A model generated the notes under the pieces. The model was not told where the DNA came from. It worked only from the letters and a program-made list of their open reading frames with translations, and did no database searches. DNA of 24,336 nt from an uncultured Lachnospiraceae bacterium. GTDB lineage: Bacteria > Bacillota > Clostridia > Lachnospirales > Lachnospiraceae. The stretch lies in NCBI GenBank assembly GCA_948500385.1, contig CAOOXE010000052.1, positions 1 through 24,336 on the forward strand, in the 5' to 3' direction. The stretch's first letter is position 1, and every line of letters begins with the position of its first letter. A program made the position numbers and the translations under genes. Shown here piece after piece: positions 1 through 8,510 of the stretch.

Positions 1-122
1 CCAGAAAAACCACCAATTCCCCCTAATACTTCTGGTCGCATCGTTGCTTGTACATGCTTTTTCATTAGTTCTACTGCTTTATAACCTGCTTCAATATCCA
101 CTCCTGCCTTTTTATAATCCAT
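1..122 (-). CDS. purM: Phosphoribosylformylglycinamidine cyclo-ligase (AIR synthetase), N-terminal 40 aa only; the gene continues beyond the window start
   Basis: Reverse-complement translation from the ATG at 122 gives [40 protein letters not shown], the conserved PurM N-terminus. A GGAGGAAAAAAG Shine-Dalgarno sits upstream (plus strand 123-140). It lies downstream of purE on the same strand. Confidence 0.75.
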
Positions 123-273
123 CTTTTTTCCTCCTGCATTTGGTATTCTATTCTTATTTTATCACATTTCGTTTCAAAACACATCTTATTTTTCTTTATC
201 CCATTCATAAGATAGCTTAATAACATCCCACTATATCACAAAACACTACTCAAAAATATCTCTTTGCCAATGA

Positions 274-789
274 TTATGTCATTTGTTTCAGATATTCACG
301 ATAACCAATTTCTTCTAACTTCTCTTTCTTTGCAACAACTCCGTCTTTTAATCCATCTTTATATTCTTTAATTTTATCCAACAACTCTAGATTCGAAGTA
401 GCCAAGATTTCAGCCGCAAGTAATCCTGCATTCATAGCTCCATTGATTGCAACTGTGGCTACTGGAATTCCTGAAGGCATCTGTACAATGGAATATAAAG
501 AATCCACTCCCCCCAAAGCCTTTGTATAGATCGGAACTCCAATTACAGGTAATGGAAAAATAGCTGCTGCCATTCCTGGAAGATGTGCTGCTCCTCCAGC
601 ACCTGCAATAATCACTTTAAACCCCTTACTTTCTGCCGTCTTTGCATAGTGAAAGAAAATATCAGGCATCCTGTGAGCAGAGATAACCGTAACATCATAG
701 CTGATTCCCAATTTATCCAAAATCTCACATGCCTTACACATAATTGGTAAGTCTGAATCACTTCCCATAACAATTCCCACTTCTGGCAT
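274..789 (-). CDS. purE: N5-carboxyaminoimidazole ribonucleotide mutase (PurE)
   Basis: 171 aa. Characteristic PurE sequence (GIVMGSDSDLPIM, ISAHRMP, IIAGAGGAAHLPGM). The size fits the PurE class. Confidence 0.9.
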   Translation of the reverse strand: MPEVGIVMGSDSDLPIMCKACEILDKLGISYDVTVISAHRMPDIFFHYAKTAESKGFKVIIAGAGGAAHLPGMAAAIFPLPVIGVPIYTKALGGVDSLYSIVQMPSGIPVATVAINGAMNAGLLAAEILATSNLELLDKIKEYKDGLKDGVVAKKEKLEEIGYREYLKQMT

Positions 790-910
790 ATCAAATCCCT
801 CTCTTTCTTTTTATAAATTAGATTCGTCAAAAAGATATTTTTGAGCAGTGTTTTATTATATAGGAATACTCTGTCAGCTTTTATTTTACAATACTGACAG
901 AGAACAACTG

Positions 911-2953
911 TTAAATATTTAAAAGTTCTGTTCCTGGCAAAACAAATTTTCCATCAGAAAGTAACACAACCTTTCCCCCTTCTTTTTGACAACAGGCAAT
1001 CTCTCCAATCTCCTCATAAGGAATTGTTATATCAGTATGACAATTAAAATAGGCTTTTTCTACTTCTGTTTTGCGAAGTTGGCTAAATGCATTTTCCCTA
1101 GCGATTACTTCTTTTCCATCGGGATTCCATACAAGAACCTCTTCTTCCCAACTATAGCAAGTATCTCCAACTGCAAAATGAGGCCCCATTTTCTCTACAA
1201 TTAAAATTGGAAGTTTTTGTAAAATTCCATATTTTTTTGCCATAGCATAAGCTACGGTATTGGTTCCTATTGCAAATTCTCCAAGAGGAAGGGTTTCATG
1301 TCCTTGCATGACATGCTGTTTTATATAATTGGCATTTTCCTTTTCAGTTTCAAAATTTTTACAAGAATACGCACTAATACAGCCATCTTGAAATTGAATT
1401 TCTAGATCTACAAATTTCAATCCACGCAGAAAAACTTCCTTTACATGAAGGATTCCATTTGTTCCAGCAAGCTTTGGGGAAGTAAACACTTCTCCAAGTG
1501 GAATATTCACATCTGCTAAACAATTTTCAAATCGAGTTTCTCGATTTTTGTCATTTAGTTCTGTTAAATTTACAATTAAATTAGTTCGATTTCCATTTGT
1601 TCCAGTAATTTGCACAAAATCACAAGCATCTAATGCATCAATCAAATACTGTTGCACATTCTGATAGACAGAACAATCTAATGTATTAATTCGTATCGTT
1701 TCTTGAAAAATTTCCTCAAAATGCTCTCCAATTTCTGGTGTTGGAAAAGCAATTATTGTAAAACTGGTTTCCTTAGAAGGGTTATATCGTTCTGCTAACT
1801 GATTTTTCTCATTTTTAAAATCTACCATCCATTTTTGCTGTTTTTTAGAAAGTACAACACATTCTGGCTTACTTACTGGGTGAAATGGTTCCTCTCCAAA
1901 TATTTCTAATACCGCAGGTCCTGCTACATTTCGAAAGTAAGAAGCATACTTTTCATAAATAACTTGTAAAATTGACATCTTTCTTTCATAAAATGCTTTA
2001 TCAAAATAAAGCCCCTCATCTTGACAATGGTCATAATCATATTGTTTATTTGCACAAGTTGCAGTATAACCAACTCTTTGTGTCTTTTGCTTTTCTACGC
2101 TATGTAATCCATAACGAAGCATCACTGGTTCTAATCCAAGTGTAGCAAATATTATAATTGCCTTACGAATCACACGTTCAAAACCAATTGGAAAACAAAT
2201 CTGTACCACTTTTTTCTTAGAAAGATCTTTTTTCGCATGTTCAAAACCTTTTTGGTAACCTTCTACAAAAGTTCTAGCCATTTTTTCAATGGTTTCTTCT
2301 GAAAGCTGATTTAAAAAAGTAGCCATTTGAATTTCTATTTTGGTAATATATTCTCCATAGGAAAACAAATAGCGTAAATCACTCAAATCCTCCTCCAAAA
2401 TAATTTTTTTTGCAAAATCAAAGGAAGGATCACATCCAGCTAAAATCCGCTTTGCATAGATTACATCACTATAATCACTTAAATACCAATAAACTGCATC
2501 AAAGATTTCCTTCTGATTTCCTTCCGTTTCAAATAAATTGTAAAGCTCAATTAACAACTCACAACCAGATACGACTTCCACAAAATTTCCTTCATAAACA
2601 TCTGCAATTAATGCTCTAAGCTCAGTATAAACAAAAGACAATAATTGACCATATTCTTTTCCCAACTTTTGCACTGCATAAGTTGGATTTGCATAACTTT
2701 TCGAATATTGTTCTGGTAAAATATCATAATATAATTGTGTATTATATGCCTGATATTCTTCAAAAGAAAATTGCTTTAATTCTCCACTTTGTTTCTTTTC
2801 CATCAATTCTTTTATCTGTAAAAGAAATCCTGCTATCTGGTAAAAATAATCTCGAAATGGCTCTTTTATTGTATCTTCCAATCGAATCATTGTAATCCGT
2901 TCCATTGATAATTGATAACGTTCTTCTAATAATTCTTTTTCTTCTATTGTCAT
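911..2953 (-). CDS. M29-like (aminopeptidase T/PepS family) metallopeptidase with an about 270-aa N-terminal extension
   Basis: 680-aa ORF. The C-terminal about 410 aa carry M29-type motifs (GEFAIGTN, HFAVGD). The N-terminal about 270 aa have no match I recognise. Family assignment is from motif recognition only. Confidence 0.55.
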   Translation of the reverse strand: MTIEEKELLEERYQLSMERITMIRLEDTIKEPFRDYFYQIAGFLLQIKELMEKKQSGELKQFSFEEYQAYNTQLYYDILPEQYSKSYANPTYAVQKLGKEYGQLLSFVYTELRALIADVYEGNFVEVVSGCELLIELYNLFETEGNQKEIFDAVYWYLSDYSDVIYAKRILAGCDPSFDFAKKIILEEDLSDLRYLFSYGEYITKIEIQMATFLNQLSEETIEKMARTFVEGYQKGFEHAKKDLSKKKVVQICFPIGFERVIRKAIIIFATLGLEPVMLRYGLHSVEKQKTQRVGYTATCANKQYDYDHCQDEGLYFDKAFYERKMSILQVIYEKYASYFRNVAGPAVLEIFGEEPFHPVSKPECVVLSKKQQKWMVDFKNEKNQLAERYNPSKETSFTIIAFPTPEIGEHFEEIFQETIRINTLDCSVYQNVQQYLIDALDACDFVQITGTNGNRTNLIVNLTELNDKNRETRFENCLADVNIPLGEVFTSPKLAGTNGILHVKEVFLRGLKFVDLEIQFQDGCISAYSCKNFETEKENANYIKQHVMQGHETLPLGEFAIGTNTVAYAMAKKYGILQKLPILIVEKMGPHFAVGDTCYSWEEEVLVWNPDGKEVIARENAFSQLRKTEVEKAYFNCHTDITIPYEEIGEIACCQKEGGKVVLLSDGKFVLPGTELLNI

Positions 2954-2971
2954 TCATTCACCCCATTCTTT

Positions 2972-3322
2972 TTATAAACCCAATAAAAAAAGCATCATCA
3001 TACTAATTAATACTGCTGAATTTCCAATACTTCCTATCCATGAAAACAAAAAGAAAATCTCTTCTTCCTGAAAACTTCGAATTCCAAAATACAAACCATA
3101 TCCAGAAAGAAAGATTGCAAGAATACCAAGTACACCAACTTCCAATCCTCCTTCCCCTCTATGCTGAAATGAAATCCAAATGGCTGCTGCACAAGCTAAA
3201 ATAGCCCCAATAGCAAGCAGCGTAGAGAAAATTCCTCCAACTGACTGACTTTTATCAGAAAATTTATATTTTTTACGATTTCCACTATTTATTTTATTTT
3301 TCAATCGGCATCCCTTTTCCAC
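2972..3322 (-). CDS. Small integral membrane protein (3 predicted TM helices), hypothetical
   Basis: 116 aa: basic N-terminus (KNKINSGNRKKYKF) followed by three hydrophobic segments. The start is GTG at 3322, or TTG at about 3304 preceded by AAAGGGA. It overlaps the 3-prime end of the VanZ-like gene by about 11-29 nt, suggesting translational coupling. Confidence 0.5.
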   Translation of the reverse strand: MEKGCRLKNKINSGNRKKYKFSDKSQSVGGIFSTLLAIGAILACAAAIWISFQHRGEGGLEVGVLGILAIFLSGYGLYFGIRSFQEEEIFFLFSWIGSIGNSAVLISMMMLFLLGL

Positions 3323-3770
3323 TCCATTTTCTTACATACTGTGCCATCCAGAAGAGAAGATAACCAAGTATCCCTCCTATCGTATTTAAAAGTAAATCAT
3401 CCACATCAAAACTTCCTACTTTATAAATAAGCTGTGTTGTTTCAATTACTAAACTAAATAGAAAAGTCAGGCAGGTTACGGTATAACAACTTCTAGTACG
3501 TATTGCTAAAAATGGAAGAAAAAATCCAAATGGCATAAGTCCTACTATATTTCCTGCTAGATTTAATAAAACTGCTGTAAATCCTAATTGTTCTCTATAG
3601 TGCCAAAATCGCCAAATTTCCTTAAATAATACCAAATTATAGCGATACGTTTTATCTATTTCTGTATGAGTTCGGCCAAACATTTCCGCAAACAATAAAA
3701 AATATACCAATGCAATTAGATAAACTAAAAAAGCTACCCAACCTGCCAGCTTCCATTCTCTTCGATTCAC
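3294..3770 (-). CDS. VanZ-like family membrane protein
   Basis: 158 aa, multi-TM. The C-terminal motif ETTQLIYKVGSFDVDDLLLNTIGGILGY is typical of VanZ/YoaR-like proteins. Confidence 0.75.
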   Translation of the reverse strand: MNRREWKLAGWVAFLVYLIALVYFLLFAEMFGRTHTEIDKTYRYNLVLFKEIWRFWHYREQLGFTAVLLNLAGNIVGLMPFGFFLPFLAIRTRSCYTVTCLTFLFSLVIETTQLIYKVGSFDVDDLLLNTIGGILGYLLFWMAQYVRKWSGKGMPIEK

Positions 3771-3785
3771 ATTCTATCCCCTTTA

Positions 3786-4019
3786 TCAAAATAATATCTT
3801 TGATTTATTTTTTAACAAAGAAGCTCCGGCAACAATAGATATAATTCCTGTTACAATTCCTGTTACCAAAAGAATGACCCCTATTGTAATACTTGCTGCT
3901 CCTGCCCTTCCCATTGTTTTATATGCTTCTTCTCCCATATTCCTACTCCCTTTCCGATTCCATACCTCTAACTGTTTTTGAGCTTGTTCTTTTTCTTCTT
4001 GATTTTCTAATTCTTTCAC
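3786..4019 (-). CDS. Small membrane protein, hypothetical (77 aa from GTG; more likely 50 aa from the internal ATG at 3938)
   Basis: C-terminal single TM helix (ITIGVILLVTGIVTGIISIVAGASLL). The track start at 4019 is GTG with a weak SD. The internal ATG at 3938 is preceded by AAAGGGAG at good spacing, giving MGEEAYKTMGRAG... Confidence 0.45.
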   Translation of the reverse strand: MKELENQEEKEQAQKQLEVWNRKGSRNMGEEAYKTMGRAGAASITIGVILLVTGIVTGIISIVAGASLLKNKSKILF

Positions 4020-4037
4020 TTTCTACCACTTACTTTC

Positions 4038-4715
4038 TTACTTTAATGCACCATACTTTTGATAATAAGCATCAATTGCTGTTTTTATAGTATCATCGAT
4101 AATGATCTTTCCTTTATATGGACGATTATAAAGATACTCCATCACTTCTTCCATCGTTACAATTGCTGTTGTCTCCATCTCATACGTATCCTGAATTTCT
4201 GCTAGTGCACTCTTTTCTCCATGCCCACGTTCCATTCTATCTACAGAAACTACCAAACCAATAATTTGAATATCGCCTTGTGCTTTTACAATTGGAAGTG
4301 TTTCCTGAATTGAAGTTCCAGCTGTTGTAACATCTTCAATAATCAAAACACGATCTCCATCACAGATTGGACTTCCCAGTAAAATCCCAGTATCTCCATG
4401 ATCTTTTGCTTCTTTTCGATTGGAACAATAACGAATATCTACCTGATACAATTCACTAATTTCCATTGCTGTTGCAACAGAAAGTGGAATCCCCTTATAA
4501 GCTGGTCCAAACAATATATCAAACTCCAATCCAAACTTATCTTGAATCGCCTTAGCATAAAATTCACCTAATTTTTTTAACTGTGCACCTGTACGATAAA
4601 ATCCCGTATTAATAAAAAATGGCGTCTTTCTACCACTCTTAGTAACAAAATCACCAAATTTCAAAACGCCACAATCCACCATAAATCCGATAAAATCCTG
4701 CTTATACTGTTCCAT
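4038..4715 (-). CDS. pyrE: Orotate phosphoribosyltransferase
   Basis: 225 aa. N-terminus MEQYKQDFIGFMVDCGVLKFGDFVTKSGRKTPFFINTG and PRPP-binding motif VLIIEDVTTAGTS. SD AAGGAG 7 nt upstream of the ATG. Confidence 0.92.
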   Translation of the reverse strand: MEQYKQDFIGFMVDCGVLKFGDFVTKSGRKTPFFINTGFYRTGAQLKKLGEFYAKAIQDKFGLEFDILFGPAYKGIPLSVATAMEISELYQVDIRYCSNRKEAKDHGDTGILLGSPICDGDRVLIIEDVTTAGTSIQETLPIVKAQGDIQIIGLVVSVDRMERGHGEKSALAEIQDTYEMETTAIVTMEEVMEYLYNRPYKGKIIIDDTIKTAIDAYYQKYGALK

Positions 4716-5464
4716 ATGTCTATACTCCTTATTTTTTTGGCTTTTAACAGCCTATTTTACATTTTTATGTTATTTTACTTTCTATTATTTTTATTGGTTT
4801 GCAATTTCATCGTTTTTTAGTATAGCATTATCTTTTTTAATATTCAAGGGTTATTAATAACTTCTTTCATAATTTTACCTTATTTTAAAATATTCATTTC
4901 TTTTTCATAAGCCTTAAAAACATAAAATAAGTAAGATAAATATTAAATTTTTAAATAAAAACTTTTTTAGATTATTTCTATTTAAAAAATCTATTTCCTT
5001 ATAATGATACTACAATATAAAACTAGATAGTATAAAAAATCTTACCATAGAAGTTATAAGACAATTTACCATTATATTATTATATTTCTATTTATAATTA
5101 ATATTTAGAATAAACTGAAAAATTCTATGATAAACATATAGAAACATAATCTTTAATAAATTTAACCCTATCAACTTCTTTAAAAAGTTAATAATTTATT
5201 TTTATTTTAAAGAATAAAGAGGAAAAGGGAACAATTTTTACAACAGATAATACATTCTGCAAATTATTTTTACAGTAATAATAAAAAATATCATTACCAA
5301 TAAACAAATTTCTGCATAAAAACATAATTTTTTACTATTTGGAGATTGATTGAAACAACAAAATATCTACTGTATTTCTAATCTCCATTAAAAATTGTTA
5401 TTTCTTATTACAAAAAGAAAAATCCCTTGATAAATCTCTTAAAGTAGCATACTCTACGAAAACT
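4716..5464. other. 750-bp extremely AT-rich non-coding spacer inside the pyr gene cluster (between pyrD stop and pyrE start)
   Basis: No ORF of 60 aa or more in any frame. By eye the GC content is under about 20%, against about 32% in flanking coding DNA. Long A/T runs throughout. Contains the inverted repeat GGAGATT...AATCTCC (5341-5386) and a duplicated 12-mer TATTTCTATTTA (about 4973 and 5086). Confidence 0.7.
4819..4847 (-). promoter_or_regulatory. Candidate sigma-70-type promoter for pyrE (TTGAAT-17-TATACT), about 100 nt upstream of the pyrE ATG
   Basis: Minus-strand TTGAAT (plus 4842-4847), 17-nt spacer, TATACT (plus 4819-4824). Confidence 0.3.
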
Positions 5465-6367
5465 CTATTTTACACATCCTACTAACTCTCCAATCTCATT
5501 TACCCCATGTTTTTTCATATACTGTTCTATTCCTTCTATAACTTCCAAAGTAGCAGTAGGGCAAAAGAAATTTGCTGTTCCAACGGAAACTGCTGTCGCA
5601 CCAGCTAGTATAAATTCTATCGCATCTTCTGCTGTTTGGATTCCTCCCATTCCAATCACGGGAATCTTTACTGCATTTGCTGCCTCGTAAACCATACGTA
5701 CTGCCACTGGTTTTATTGCTGGCCCTGATAAGCCACCTGTCTTATTTGCTAAAGCAAATGTTCTCTTTTCAATATCAATTTTCATTCCAGTCAATGTATT
5801 AATCAAAGACAACGCATCTGCTCCTCCTGCCTCTGCTGCCTTTGCCATATCTGCAATACTAGTAACATTTGGACTTAATTTCATAATAATTGGCTGTTTT
5901 GCACGTTTTTTCAATTCTTTTGTAATCGCTTCTACTGCTTTTGCATCTTGTCCAAAAGCAATTCCTCCTTCTTTTACATTTGGACAAGAAATATTGATTT
6001 CCATTAGATCAATTTCTTCTTCTGCAAGACATTCTACTACTTCACAATAATCTTCTGTTGTCTTTCCACATACGTTTACAATAATCTTTGTATCATATTG
6101 TTTTAAAAATGGAATATCTCTCTTTCGAAATACATCGATTCCTGGATTTTGCAGTCCAATTGCATTTAACATTCCACCATAAGTTTCTGCAATTCTTGGT
6201 GTTGGATTTCCAGGCCACGGCACATTTGCTACCCCTTTTGTCACAACTGCTCCTAATCGATTTAAATCTACAAAATCACAATATTCTGCTCCCGATCCAA
6301 ATGTTCCAGAAGCTGTCATAACTGGGTTTTTTAATTCTACACCTGCAATGTTTACTTTTGTATTCAT
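5465..6367 (-). CDS. pyrD: Dihydroorotate dehydrogenase, catalytic subunit (class 1B)
   Basis: 300 aa with PyrD family motifs (NPVMTASGTFGSG, ISCPN, GGLSGPAIKP). The start overlaps the pyrK stop (ATGA). Confidence 0.92.
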   Translation of the reverse strand: MNTKVNIAGVELKNPVMTASGTFGSGAEYCDFVDLNRLGAVVTKGVANVPWPGNPTPRIAETYGGMLNAIGLQNPGIDVFRKRDIPFLKQYDTKIIVNVCGKTTEDYCEVVECLAEEEIDLMEINISCPNVKEGGIAFGQDAKAVEAITKELKKRAKQPIIMKLSPNVTSIADMAKAAEAGGADALSLINTLTGMKIDIEKRTFALANKTGGLSGPAIKPVAVRMVYEAANAVKIPVIGMGGIQTAEDAIEFILAGATAVSVGTANFFCPTATLEVIEGIEQYMKKHGVNEIGELVGCVK

Positions 6368-7149
6368 TAAAGTTCCACCTCCTCCGCATCAAAAACTGGC
6401 CCATCTTTACAAATCCGCTTATTATGTACATGGGAATGTTCATCTACTTCCTTTGACTGACAGACACAAGCTAAACATGCGCCTATTCCACAGGCCATCT
6501 TTTCTTCCAGAGAAATCTGTGCTGGAATTCCTTTTTCTTTTGCATAACTTTGTACTGCCCGAAGCATTGGTGTTGGCCCACAAGCATAGATCTGTTCTGC
6601 TTCAAAATGTTTTCCTTGAATTACATCTAATACATTTCCTTTGATTCCTGCACTTCCATCTTCTGTTGAAATAGAAACCGTTCCATACTGTTTTAATTCT
6701 TCTATCAAAAATAATTCTTTTCCATTTCGATACCCTAATATAATTTCTTTCTCTCCCTGCAGTCTTTTTGCAAGTTCCAACAATGGTGGGATTCCAATTC
6801 CTCCTCCAATTAGATATGCCTTTTTATGTTCCTTTAATCGATACCCGTTCCCTAAAGGCCCCATAATATCCAATCTATCACCACTCTTGTAAGAGGAAAA
6901 CTCTTTTGTTCCCTCTCCCACAATCCGATAAACCACTCGGAGCCTGTTCTGTTCTTTTTCTACTTCACAGATACTAATTGGTCTTGGAAGAAGTCTAGAA
7001 CCTTCTTTACAATAGATAGAAAGGAACTGCCCTGGCTGCGCAGCTTTCGCAATAGATTCTGTTTGGAACCAAATACTATAAATATCGGTTGCAATTTTAT
7101 CTTGTTTTATAATAACTGCCTGTTCTTTCCATTTCCATTGATTCTCCAT
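6367..7149 (-). CDS. pyrK: Dihydroorotate dehydrogenase electron-transfer subunit (FAD/2Fe-2S)
   Basis: 260 aa. C-terminal cysteine cluster CGIGACLACVC. Position immediately upstream of pyrD with a 4-nt overlap. SD AAAGGA upstream. Confidence 0.9.
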   Translation of the reverse strand: MENQWKWKEQAVIIKQDKIATDIYSIWFQTESIAKAAQPGQFLSIYCKEGSRLLPRPISICEVEKEQNRLRVVYRIVGEGTKEFSSYKSGDRLDIMGPLGNGYRLKEHKKAYLIGGGIGIPPLLELAKRLQGEKEIILGYRNGKELFLIEELKQYGTVSISTEDGSAGIKGNVLDVIQGKHFEAEQIYACGPTPMLRAVQSYAKEKGIPAQISLEEKMACGIGACLACVCQSKEVDEHSHVHNKRICKDGPVFDAEEVEL

Positions 7150-7191
7150 ATCAACATTTTCCTTTCCATTTTATTTCTGTATCTCTATCTT

Positions 7192-8115
7192 TTATTTCGA
7201 AAGTGCTTCATTAATGTCAGTAATCATGTCTATTACTGCTTGACGGGCTGCATCTGCATAATGCTCCTCGCCAAACGAAGCATACTTTTCATTTTTATAA
7301 GCTGCAATAATTCCCCGAGAAGAATTTACAATAGCTCCCAATCCATCTTTATGGAAATAATGTACCAAATCTTGTGCTTTTCCGCCTTGTGCTCCATATC
7401 CTGGTACCAAAATATAAGTTTTTGGCATTAACTTGCGAAGAACTTTTCCCATCTCTGGATAAGTAGCCCCTACTACAGCACCAATATAACTATACGTTTC
7501 TCCCATATGTGCCTCTCCCCATTTGGCCACTTGTTCCCCCACTAATTCATACAAAGGTCTGCCATCAACCAGTTTGTCTTGAAATTCTCCACTAGAAGGA
7601 TTTGATGTCTTAACTAAAATAAATAATCCCTTTCTTTCCTCTTTACATACATCTAAAAATGGCTGAACTCCATCTGTACCAAAATAAGGATTTACTGTAG
7701 CAAAATCCTCATTAAAAACAGAATATCTTTTATTTCCTATCTGTACTTTTCCTAAATGGGCTTCTGCATAAGCAGCAGAAGTTGAGCCAATATCTCCTCT
7801 CTTTATATCTCCAATTACTACTAATCCTTTTTCTTTTGCGTAGGCACAAGTCTTTTGAAATACTTTTAATCCTTCCAGCCCAAACTGTTCATACATTGCA
7901 ATCTGTGGCTTTATTGCAGGAATCAAATCAAAAGTCGCATCAATAATTCCTTTATTAAACTGCCAAGCTGCTTCCGCTGCCGCTTCTAACGTCTCTCCCA
8001 TTTCTGCAAATACTTTACTGCAAATTTCTTTTGGAATATAATTCATCATTGGATCTAAGCCTACTACAATTGGTGCATTTGTCTTTTTAATTTTTGCTAC
8101 TAATTGGTTAATCAT
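7192..8115 (-). CDS. pyrF: Orotidine 5-prime-phosphate decarboxylase, long (type 2) form
   Basis: 307 aa. N-terminal VVGLDP and a conserved DIKRGDIGST motif. The length matches the type-2 PyrF found in Clostridia and Actinobacteria. SD GGAGAAAAAG upstream. Confidence 0.85.
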   Translation of the reverse strand: MINQLVAKIKKTNAPIVVGLDPMMNYIPKEICSKVFAEMGETLEAAAEAAWQFNKGIIDATFDLIPAIKPQIAMYEQFGLEGLKVFQKTCAYAKEKGLVVIGDIKRGDIGSTSAAYAEAHLGKVQIGNKRYSVFNEDFATVNPYFGTDGVQPFLDVCKEERKGLFILVKTSNPSSGEFQDKLVDGRPLYELVGEQVAKWGEAHMGETYSYIGAVVGATYPEMGKVLRKLMPKTYILVPGYGAQGGKAQDLVHYFHKDGLGAIVNSSRGIIAAYKNEKYASFGEEHYADAARQAVIDMITDINEALSK

Positions 8116-8153
8116 TCTTTTTCTCCTTTTGCCTTTTATTCTATTTTTAACAT

Positions 8154-8182
8154 TTTAGCATAAAGAAAGTATCCATTCAAGA
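8154..8182 (-). promoter_or_regulatory. Candidate sigma-70-type promoter of the pyrF-pyrK-pyrD transcript (TTGAAT-17-TAAAAT)
   Basis: Minus-strand TTGAAT (plus 8177-8182), 17-nt spacer, TAAAAT (plus 8154-8159), about 38 nt upstream of the pyrF ATG. The leader is too short for a PyrR-type attenuator. Confidence 0.4.
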
Positions 8183-8231
8183 AATCCCAAAAAATTATTT
8201 TAAAAAATAGATTTCCTTAAATAAATTAATT

Positions 8232-8483
8232 TTACTTAAACAGCCTTTGATATCGTTCTTTTACTTTATTATATTCCTCTTCCGTTACAGGTTCTTCATT
8301 TATAAAATAGGTAGTTTCCTCTATATGCTCTAATCCAAAAGAAAGACTCTGTTCTATCTCTCCCTCTTTATAATCATAGATTTTTCTTTCTGAATAATAC
8401 CAGCAAATCCTCCAAAAGTTCCACTTACATACTTCCATTCCACTACAAAACAATAGTAATATCAATAAAATATAGTTTATCAT
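8232..8483 (-). CDS. Small hypothetical protein with N-terminal hydrophobic signal/anchor and acidic C-terminal domain
   Basis: 83 aa (MINYILLILLLFCSG...). Strong SD GTGGAGGTTAA directly before the ATG. It starts 27 nt after the stop of the upstream phosphatase gene. Confidence 0.5.
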   Translation of the reverse strand: MINYILLILLLFCSGMEVCKWNFWRICWYYSERKIYDYKEGEIEQSLSFGLEHIEETTYFINEEPVTEEEYNKVKERYQRLFK

Positions 8484-8510
8484 TTAACCTCCACTTTTAC
8501 GCAATTTTTC

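Follow-up and report, generated by a model that had tools for sequence, protein, structure and literature searches.

The DNA analyzed here, a 24,336-nt stretch referred to as the window, comes from an uncultured Lachnospiraceae bacterium (assembly GCA_948500385.1, contig CAOOXE010000052.1); all coordinates are those of the whole stretch, and L-numbers denote contigs or loci fetched for comparison. Every gene of its pyrimidine region lies on the minus strand, where pyrF, pyrK, and pyrD are tightly packed and pyrE is set apart from them by the spacer that is the subject of this work (positions 4716-5464, 749 bp). Read from pyrD, the spacer consists of half of an inverted repeat, the relic of a promoter switch, an acyltransferase pseudogene, the tail of an ATPase gene, the pyrE promoter, and the pyrE leader. 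Coordinates of these features are collected in Table 1.

The GC content of the spacer is 18.8%, compared with 34.1% for the window, 35.0% for coding sequence, and 23% for third codon positions of the genes. A preliminary description of this DNA, made from the sequence alone, had reported a 750-bp spacer of less than 20% GC that lacks open reading frames (ORFs) of 60 aa or more and separates pyrE from a compact pyrF-pyrK-pyrD group, and our measurements agree with it on each of these points. The longest ATG-initiated ORF encodes 45 aa (5188-5325). The longest stop-free run is 47 codons, which falls within the range seen in shuffled sequences of the same composition (49 +/- 11), so the ORF lengths are at the level of chance. 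The same description had put all other intergenic gaps at 0-300 bp; the spacer is indeed the longest gap in the window, but two others exceed that range, 9123-9457 (335 bp) and 21138-21549 (412 bp, containing tRNA-Leu). The long A/T homopolymer runs that it mentioned are present, but their enrichment is mild (18 observed versus 11.8 +/- 3.0 expected). Both of its reported repeats are real: the 12-mer TATTTCTATTTA occurs at 4973 and again at 5083, and the arms of the 7-bp inverted repeat (GGAGATT/AATCTCC, 5341-5386) belong to a more extended hairpin (-13.3 kcal/mol, z = -3.0).

Table 1. Features of the pyrD-pyrE junction and adjoining genes
Feature	Coordinates	Strand	Basis or remark
pyrF	7192-8115	-	
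pyrK	6367-7149	-	
pyrD	5465-6367	-	
pyrD 3' flank, left half of palindromic inverted-repeat-like site (AGTTTTCGTAGAGTATGCTACT...)	5437-5464	-	
Inverton fossil	5240-5442	-	orientation facing pyrD
Segment absent from short allele	5289-5355 (67 bp)	-	allele alignment
Segment absent from short allele	5156-5160 (5 bp)		allele alignment
Segment absent from short allele	4993-5042 (50 bp)	-	bounded by 10-bp direct repeat AGATTTTTTA
Acyl_transf_3 (PF01757) pseudogene	4907-5186	-	first ~102 codons of gene
Hypervariable spot in pseudogene	4953-4957	-	four alleles among strains
ABC ATPase gene tail	4880-4921	-	last 13 codons (VFKAYEKEMNILK) 4921-4883, stop codon 4882-4880
pyrE promoter box CCCTTGAATATTAAAAAAGATAATGCTATACT	4819-4850	-	consensus scan and conservation in relatives
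pyrE 5' leader	4716-4818	-	about 97-103 nt, read from sequence
pyrE	4038-4715	-	

To place the spacer among related junctions, we took 80 loci with PyrE relatives from GTDB genomes and added four closer relatives through PyrD homologues. The genome nearest to the species of the window is a mouse-gut metagenome-assembled genome with a 95% identical PyrE. At loci of the family where pyrD precedes pyrE, the gap is usually 20-240 bp, and in the nearest relatives it is 171 bp (L089, PyrD 93%), 238 bp (L090, 90%), and 149 bp (L009/L093, 88%). In these sister taxa, the gap holds the promoter and the leader only. The spacer does separate pyrD from pyrE, but to speak of a split operon, as the preliminary description did, is overstated, given that relatives with 149-238 bp at this junction already have the same pyrE promoter. 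Of the spacer, only the ~135 bp adjoining pyrE align with the junctions of these relatives; the distal ~600 bp (~4880-5464) are absent from sister species and are specific to the species of the window. Unrelated genes were independently gained between pyrD and pyrE in other Lachnospiraceae (among L019, L066, L073, and L074/L081), encoding a CBS-domain protein of 147 aa, a 226-aa protein, an NlpC/P60-like protein of 331 aa, and a beta-lactamase-like protein of 325 aa, and L050 has an ORF-free gap of 375 bp at this position. The pyrD/pyrE junction looks like a permissive insertion site.

The alignable part of the spacer contains a predicted promoter of the sigma-A (sigma-70) type. Its -35 element is TTGAAT (4847-4842), its two hexamers are 17 nt apart, and its extended -10 element, TGCTATACT, ends at 4819; it has TG at -15/-14 and matches the consensus at 9 of 12 positions. 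This TTGAAT-17-TATACT promoter had been proposed in the preliminary description as plausible, and its conservation in relatives supports it. In L009/L093, L089, L090, and L010, 29-31 nt of the 32-nt box (CCCTTGAATATTaAAAAAnATAATGyTATACT) are identical, and the flanks of the box are unalignable in these five genus-level relatives, so the box is conserved above its surroundings. In L010 (PyrE 92% identical) the box stands before pyrE even without pyrD on its other side; promoter and pyrE are therefore a self-contained unit, with selection acting on the promoter. There (L010:2837-4678), away from pyrD, the genes upstream of pyrE and its promoter are aspS, a cytidine-deaminase-like gene, and a gene for a small membrane protein.

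Transcription is expected to start near 4812, ~7 nt downstream of the -10 element. The leader contains the ribosome-binding site AAGGAG (4725-4730) as well as a small hairpin, GGCTGTTAAAAGCC (4739-4752); the fold is weak (-7.3 kcal/mol, z = -1.4). Between species the leader is poorly conserved in both sequence and length (75-167 nt); among alleles of the species of the window, the proximal 134 bp show zero substitutions. The idea that the spacer is a long regulatory leader found no support: from the predicted promoter to pyrE there are only ~100 nt, and the other ~600 bp are situated farther upstream. Most probably, pyrE is expressed from this promoter, and transcription independent of pyrFKD is possible. 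Because no terminator is visible, read-through from pyrD may add to pyrE expression and would then supplement the activity predicted for the pyrE promoter.

It was conspecific strains that accounted for the distal part. When JGI data were scanned with the promoter pattern, one short contig, L105, came up. Downstream of 4920 it shares 99.3% identity with the window; upstream it differs and has an open frame that ends in ...AYEKEMNILK*, of which the window keeps the final codons. Treating the 54-nt divergent end of L105 as an assembly tip was an option that we dropped, since it encodes the C terminus of an ABC ATPase. A word-index protein search with the 30-aa peptide of L105 padded with X gave a false negative, to which short queries are prone; in the assembly collection, many contigs encode the full ABC ATPase with this peptide. 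The PyrE variant K203T, as in L105, was found on 62 contigs, many of which have a gene other than pyrD upstream. That gene encodes an intact 250-aa ABC ATPase and ends 164 bp before pyrE (L106-L108, L110, and L112-L123).

The ATPase gene is the last of an island of genes, and in same-species contigs L106-L108, L110, L112-L114, and L117-L123 the island lies directly upstream of an identical promoter and pyrE. The window is 99.3% identical to these island-bearing contigs, too, from 4920 on toward pyrE. Proceeding upstream from the ATPase, it encodes an ABC-2 permease (282 or 312 aa), an Acyl_transf_3 protein (a 361-aa or a truncated 288-aa allele), a TagF-like 917-aa protein with Glyco_trans_1_2 and Glyphos_transf domains, an epimerase, and an IspD-like nucleotidyltransferase; an acetyltransferase/glyoxalase and a 533-aa unknown protein are the farthest products seen. 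The Pfam content comprises PF04464, PF01757, PF01061, and PF00005. With contigs read 10 kb upstream of pyrE, the island is longer than 10 kb, a lower bound, and its GC content is 30.9% (L114 and L117-L122, positions 1-9836). As judged by these Pfam-level assignments, it is a putative cell-surface glycopolymer locus of the teichoic-acid type.

Two pieces of this island are recognizable in the window. The first is the beginning of the acyltransferase gene: blastn aligned it to the intact gene at L114:7100-7398 and L119:7101-7399 (69.4-69.7% identity over 304 nt, E = 1e-26 to 1e-28), a MAFFT alignment gave 74% identity over 270 columns, and tblastn with the intact 361-aa PF01757 protein matched codons 1-102 (E = 2e-17). 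The similarity is collinear, and the copy in the window carries disabling lesions: its start codon is changed from ATG to TTA (5183-5181), it has two in-frame stops and three internal gaps, and it is truncated after codon ~102. The second piece, found by tblastn with residues 238-250 of the intact ATPase, is the tail of the island-terminal ABC ATPase gene. It comes next after the pseudogene and is followed by the identical pyrE promoter, so synteny is also preserved. A short microhomology, ATGnTTAT, lies at the junction of the two pieces near 4905-4915, where ~2.4 kb are missing compared with the intact island.

The stretch next to pyrD has a different source, an invertible promoter element (inverton). 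Contigs L126 and L133, which belong to the same species and encode exactly the PyrK and PyrD of the window, continue after pyrD with a 31-nt palindrome, AGTTTTCGTAGAGTATGCTACTCTATGAAAA, and a promoter element of ~430 nt, at which the contigs end. The intact element has a promoter, TTGACA-17-TATCAT (11 of 12 consensus matches), that points away from pyrD. In the window, 5442-5240 matches the reverse complement of this element (76.7% over 206 nt, E = 1e-39; 80% identity over 190 columns in a MAFFT alignment), and the window copy is therefore oriented opposite to that of L126 and L133. Immediately after pyrD, at 5437-5464, 26 of 28 nt are common to L126, L133, and L132, all of which hold the full palindrome. 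The window copy retains its -35 element as TTGATA (plus strand, 5427-5432), and a deletion of ~53 nt took the -10 element and the right half of the palindrome. The hairpin at 5341-5386 belongs to this fossil and is conserved in L126. A collinear-looking match of the spacer to the C terminus of TagF (E = 0.85) was rejected, as that stretch proved to be inverton-derived.

That elements of this family do invert was observed at a second site, which lies ~8 kb beyond pyrE, where the window no longer reaches, and has purD on one side and a GT2 glycosyltransferase cluster on the other. In the otherwise near-identical contigs L115 and L116, a segment of ~610 bp is present in opposite orientations (97.4% identity over 618 nt). 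In L115 (18343-18952), it is bounded by 42-nt, internally palindromic repeats (TAAAATAAGTTTTCATAGAGTAATCTCCTCTATGAAATATAA) at 18343-18384 and 18911-18952, to which the pyrD-side palindrome is 86% similar, and it carries a TTGACA-17-TATCAT promoter. The purD-side element is a true inverton; no recombinase gene was seen near it in L115 or L116. The copy in the window has none of these properties in full. Its left half-repeat stands alone, all island-free contigs share one orientation at this locus, and the internal promoter is reduced to its -35 element. Because it has no second repeat, the window copy is inactive as an inverton.

On the pyrD side, the orientation of the element in L126 and L133 differs from that in L132, but L132 may be an assembly chimera. 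After the pyrD palindrome, L132:2875-3051 matches the interior of the purD-side inverton at 100% identity over 133 nt. This points to gene conversion involving both switches or else to a k-mer chimera formed through similar repeats.

Both relics have drifted toward AT. Mismatches between the pseudogene and the intact acyltransferase gene comprise 41 GC-to-AT and 20 AT-to-GC changes, and the GC content falls from 24.8% in the intact gene to 15.6% in the pseudogene. For the switch relic the corresponding numbers are 19 and 9, with a fall from 26.7% to 21.0%. The ultra-AT-rich appearance of the spacer is thus due to an AT-rich source, a membrane-protein gene and a promoter region, that subsequently drifted toward the mutational equilibrium of the genome.

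Variation within the species gives a similar picture. The window is identical to contig L003 across 8.7 kb, and two main spacer alleles occur, one of 749 bp and a short one of 629-630 bp (L004, L006, L007, and L104). Three segments are absent from the short allele (Table 1). The flanking direct repeat of the 50-bp segment is the signature expected of a slippage-type deletion, and the 67-bp loss removes one arm of the 5341-5386 hairpin and the start of the sole 45-aa ORF. All indels and gap columns between the alleles fall in the distal part, where 1.83% of positions are substituted over 615 bp, compared with 0.2-0.9% in most flanking genes and 1.6% in the short orf83. The substitution density of the relic looks roughly neutral, and the distal part, as far as these alleles indicate, behaves as unconstrained DNA. 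Contig L100 (3521-3555) tracks the spacer up to the hypervariable spot (~4955) and then continues with 35 unrelated, GC-richer nucleotides, AAAAGAAAACGCTTGATTATCTCAAAAAAGCCTTG. This divergent end, which matched none of the fetched loci, is a further structural variant or else an assembly tip.

These alleles bear on the possibility that the relic still works, either by uncoupling pyrE from pyrFKD read-through, for example through termination, or as an AT-rich enhancer of the pyrE promoter. AT-rich DNA does lie immediately upstream of the -35 element, and none of the sampled island-free strains has shrunk to the ~150 bp seen in sister species; their spacers measure 629-749 bp. However, a terminator scan of the spacer found no terminator-like site on either strand, three independent deletions totaling 122 bp are tolerated, and the substitution density is at least that of the flanking genes. 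Moreover, in island-bearing strains coding DNA reaches to 32 bp upstream of an identical -35 element (the ATPase stop codon ends at 4880), and therefore the promoter does not need the AT-rich stretch. We consider a working relic improbable.

A lineage-specific small RNA or micro-protein is still less probable. Such a product could draw on the 5341-5386 hairpin, with its z of -3.0, or on the 45-aa ORF, but the 67-bp deletion in the short allele destroys both the hairpin arm and the ORF start, and homology to the inverton and the pseudogene accounts for the region. The spacer has no promoter paired with a terminator, and its six-frame stop-free segments have no match in Pfam. A search of Rfam yielded no match at gathering score in the spacer region and nothing relevant at E <= 10 within 4600-5600, where matches were at the level of chance, and sliding 120-nt folding of both strands revealed no structured segment (minimum z = -2.2 over 38 windows). 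The suggestion of a non-coding RNA in the preliminary description hence found no signal. Its suggestion of curved DNA failed as well, with A-tract power at 10-11.5 bp not above Markov-1 controls and no 10-11 bp phasing of A-tracts. By contrast, its opinion that the spacer is not a PyrR-type attenuator is consistent with the covariance-model search, in which RF00515 had no match either at gathering score in the window or at E <= 10 in 4600-5600. Repeat and tandem-repeat searches of the spacer did not rise above the null, nor did autocorrelation for a period of ~110 bp hinted at by two repeat pairs.

The preliminary description had also raised a decayed insertion, a former insertion sequence (IS) or intron. 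It was right as to the kind of event and not as to the source, which lies in a glycopolymer island and its invertible promoter. The spacer is lineage-specific, AT-rich, and non-coding, as a decayed IS element, a miniature inverted-repeat transposable element, or a group II intron would be, but its boundaries lack terminal inverted repeats, and homology to other sources covers most of its length. There were no transposase or intron matches, and no copies were found in phage, plasmid, viral, or JGI collections: blastn against phage and plasmid collections gave weak AT-rich chance matches only, and words from the distal spacer had no exact k-mer match in JGI metagenomes or IMG/VR. When the spacer was searched by tblastn with the 3,861 ORFs of 80 related loci, only low-complexity noise came back. 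We give a mobile-element origin almost no weight.

The probability of a metagenome mis-join is similarly negligible. Contigs L008, L100-L103, L136, and L137 break within the spacer, as an artefact of assembly might cause, but more than 15 independent contigs from different samples run from pyrD to pyrE with the sequence of the window or the short allele. Assemblies that break at the switch itself are expected if the switch inverts.

We conclude that the spacer is very probably a decayed glycopolymer island together with its invertible promoter, followed by the conserved promoter of pyrE. In the proposed history, an ancestor would have had a teichoic-acid-type island in the interval from pyrD to the pyrE promoter, with an invertible promoter at its head. 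One deletion would have begun within the invertible element and stopped shortly before the acyltransferase start, and another would have run, of ~2.4 kb, from acyltransferase codon ~102 to ATPase codon ~238. Left over would be half of the inverted repeat, a switch fragment of ~200 nt that lacks the -10 element and is fixed in the orientation toward pyrD, the acyltransferase pseudogene, and the ATPase tail. In the absence of selection, the strong GC-to-AT mutation bias of the genome and replication slippage would then have produced an indel-polymorphic remnant of ~16-21% GC. The order of these events, like neutral decay after at least two deletions, is what we infer from the sequence comparisons. 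The position of the island between pyrD and pyrE in island-bearing strains is likewise deduced from the collinear relic and from two anchored junctions.

Several observations weigh against this reconstruction. No single contig joins pyrD, the inverton, the island, and pyrE: the pyrD-side contigs L126 and L133 end at the invertible element, and the island contigs were read 10 kb upstream only. The sole pyrD-side contig in which the switch faces pyrD is L132, which we set aside as possibly chimeric. The ~53 nt at 5187-5239 are without an assigned homologue. Divergence between the relic and the sampled intact copies amounts to 20-30%, compared with at least 99% identity in the flanking genes, and the ancestor of the relic would therefore have been a different or older allele, unless the locus has recombined. 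A residual role of the relic, such as insulation from pyrD read-through, would also speak against pure decay, and we hold it to be unlikely, as set out above for a working relic.

The divergence also admits a more speculative view, which we regard as possible but tentative. The junction could be a long-lived presence/absence polymorphism, with a phase-variable island in some strains and a fossil locked in the off state in others; the 20-30% divergence would then reflect ancient alleles kept under balancing selection by phage or host immunity and moved by recombination. In such a polymorphism, one inverton family, that with 42-nt palindromic repeats, may also control a second glycan locus 8 kb away. 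Our own verdict on the spacer, a decayed island beside the pyrE promoter, is that it represents ordinary genome decay and an ordinary conserved promoter, with no new regulatory device.

Gene-island scars and pseudogene remnants left by deletion decay toward AT in bacterial genomes. The relic in the window resembles them in its collinear gene fragments, lost start codon, in-frame stops, junction microhomology, GC-to-AT enrichment, and indel polymorphism. Unlike typical scars, it includes the fossil of a DNA-inversion switch, and it differs by 20-30% from intact alleles that circulate in the same species.

Among invertible promoters, Bacteroides capsule loci are established examples, and invertons have been surveyed with PhaseFinder and DeepInverton. 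The presence of such promoters at surface-glycan loci is well known in gut bacteria (PMC11892184, PMC11602134). The intact relatives of 5240-5442 fit this pattern: inverted repeats flank their near-consensus promoter, glycan-synthesis genes come next, and one copy of the family was seen in both orientations (L115 versus L116). In contrast, the window copy has one half-repeat, no -10 element, and no downstream genes, and it can neither invert nor drive expression. The internally palindromic 42-nt repeats of the L115/L116 copy are themselves unlike those of usual invertons.

Internal promoters occur in pyrimidine clusters of Firmicutes, the pyr operon of Bacillus subtilis is attenuated by PyrR, and E. 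coli rph-pyrE is subject to attenuation. The window resembles clusters with internal promoters in that pyrD is followed by pyrE, which has a sigma-A-type promoter and a leader of its own. Unlike the B. subtilis operon, it has no PyrR motif detectable with Rfam and no apparent mechanism of regulation, and its leader is short, unstructured, and poorly conserved. Our search of the literature on pyrE and PyrR in Clostridia found nothing specific. Wall teichoic acid clusters follow a TagF, TagG, TagH logic, and the island agrees with it at the Pfam level in its TagF-like PF04464 protein, IspD-like nucleotidyltransferase, and ABC-2 permease with ATPase. Unlike in such clusters, no intact gene of the island survives in the window.

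For annotation, these results mean that the spacer should not be labeled a riboswitch, a small RNA, or an operon attenuator, that pyrE receives its own predicted promoter, and that the distal part is best entered as a pseudogene and island scar. More generally, an AT-rich, ORF-free spacer of a low-GC gut Firmicute was decoded here by comparison within the species; in sister species, the sequence was missing. The results also point to a strain-variable, and probably phase-variable, cell-wall glycopolymer locus in an uncultured member of the Lachnospiraceae. Traits of this kind affect phage susceptibility and host interaction.

A few further observations were made along the way. Two PyrE-related proteins, P0122 and P0123 (338 and 323 aa), outscored the exact match of 225 aa. 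One of them contains PF03831 as an additional domain, and they may be products of fused or mis-called genes. T-box leaders are common in Firmicutes, but in the window the 183 bp upstream of the tryptophanyl-tRNA synthetase gene (10085-10267; gene at 10268-11416) contain no T-box at the Rfam gathering score. Finally, an 811-aa protein encoded on the minus strand at 13242-15677 matches the shoulder domain of the major vault protein (PF11978), with a faint Vault_3 match. Its gene adjoins that of a 596-aa FtsA/MreB/PilM-like ATPase (15696-17486, minus strand), an unusual pair for a Firmicute.

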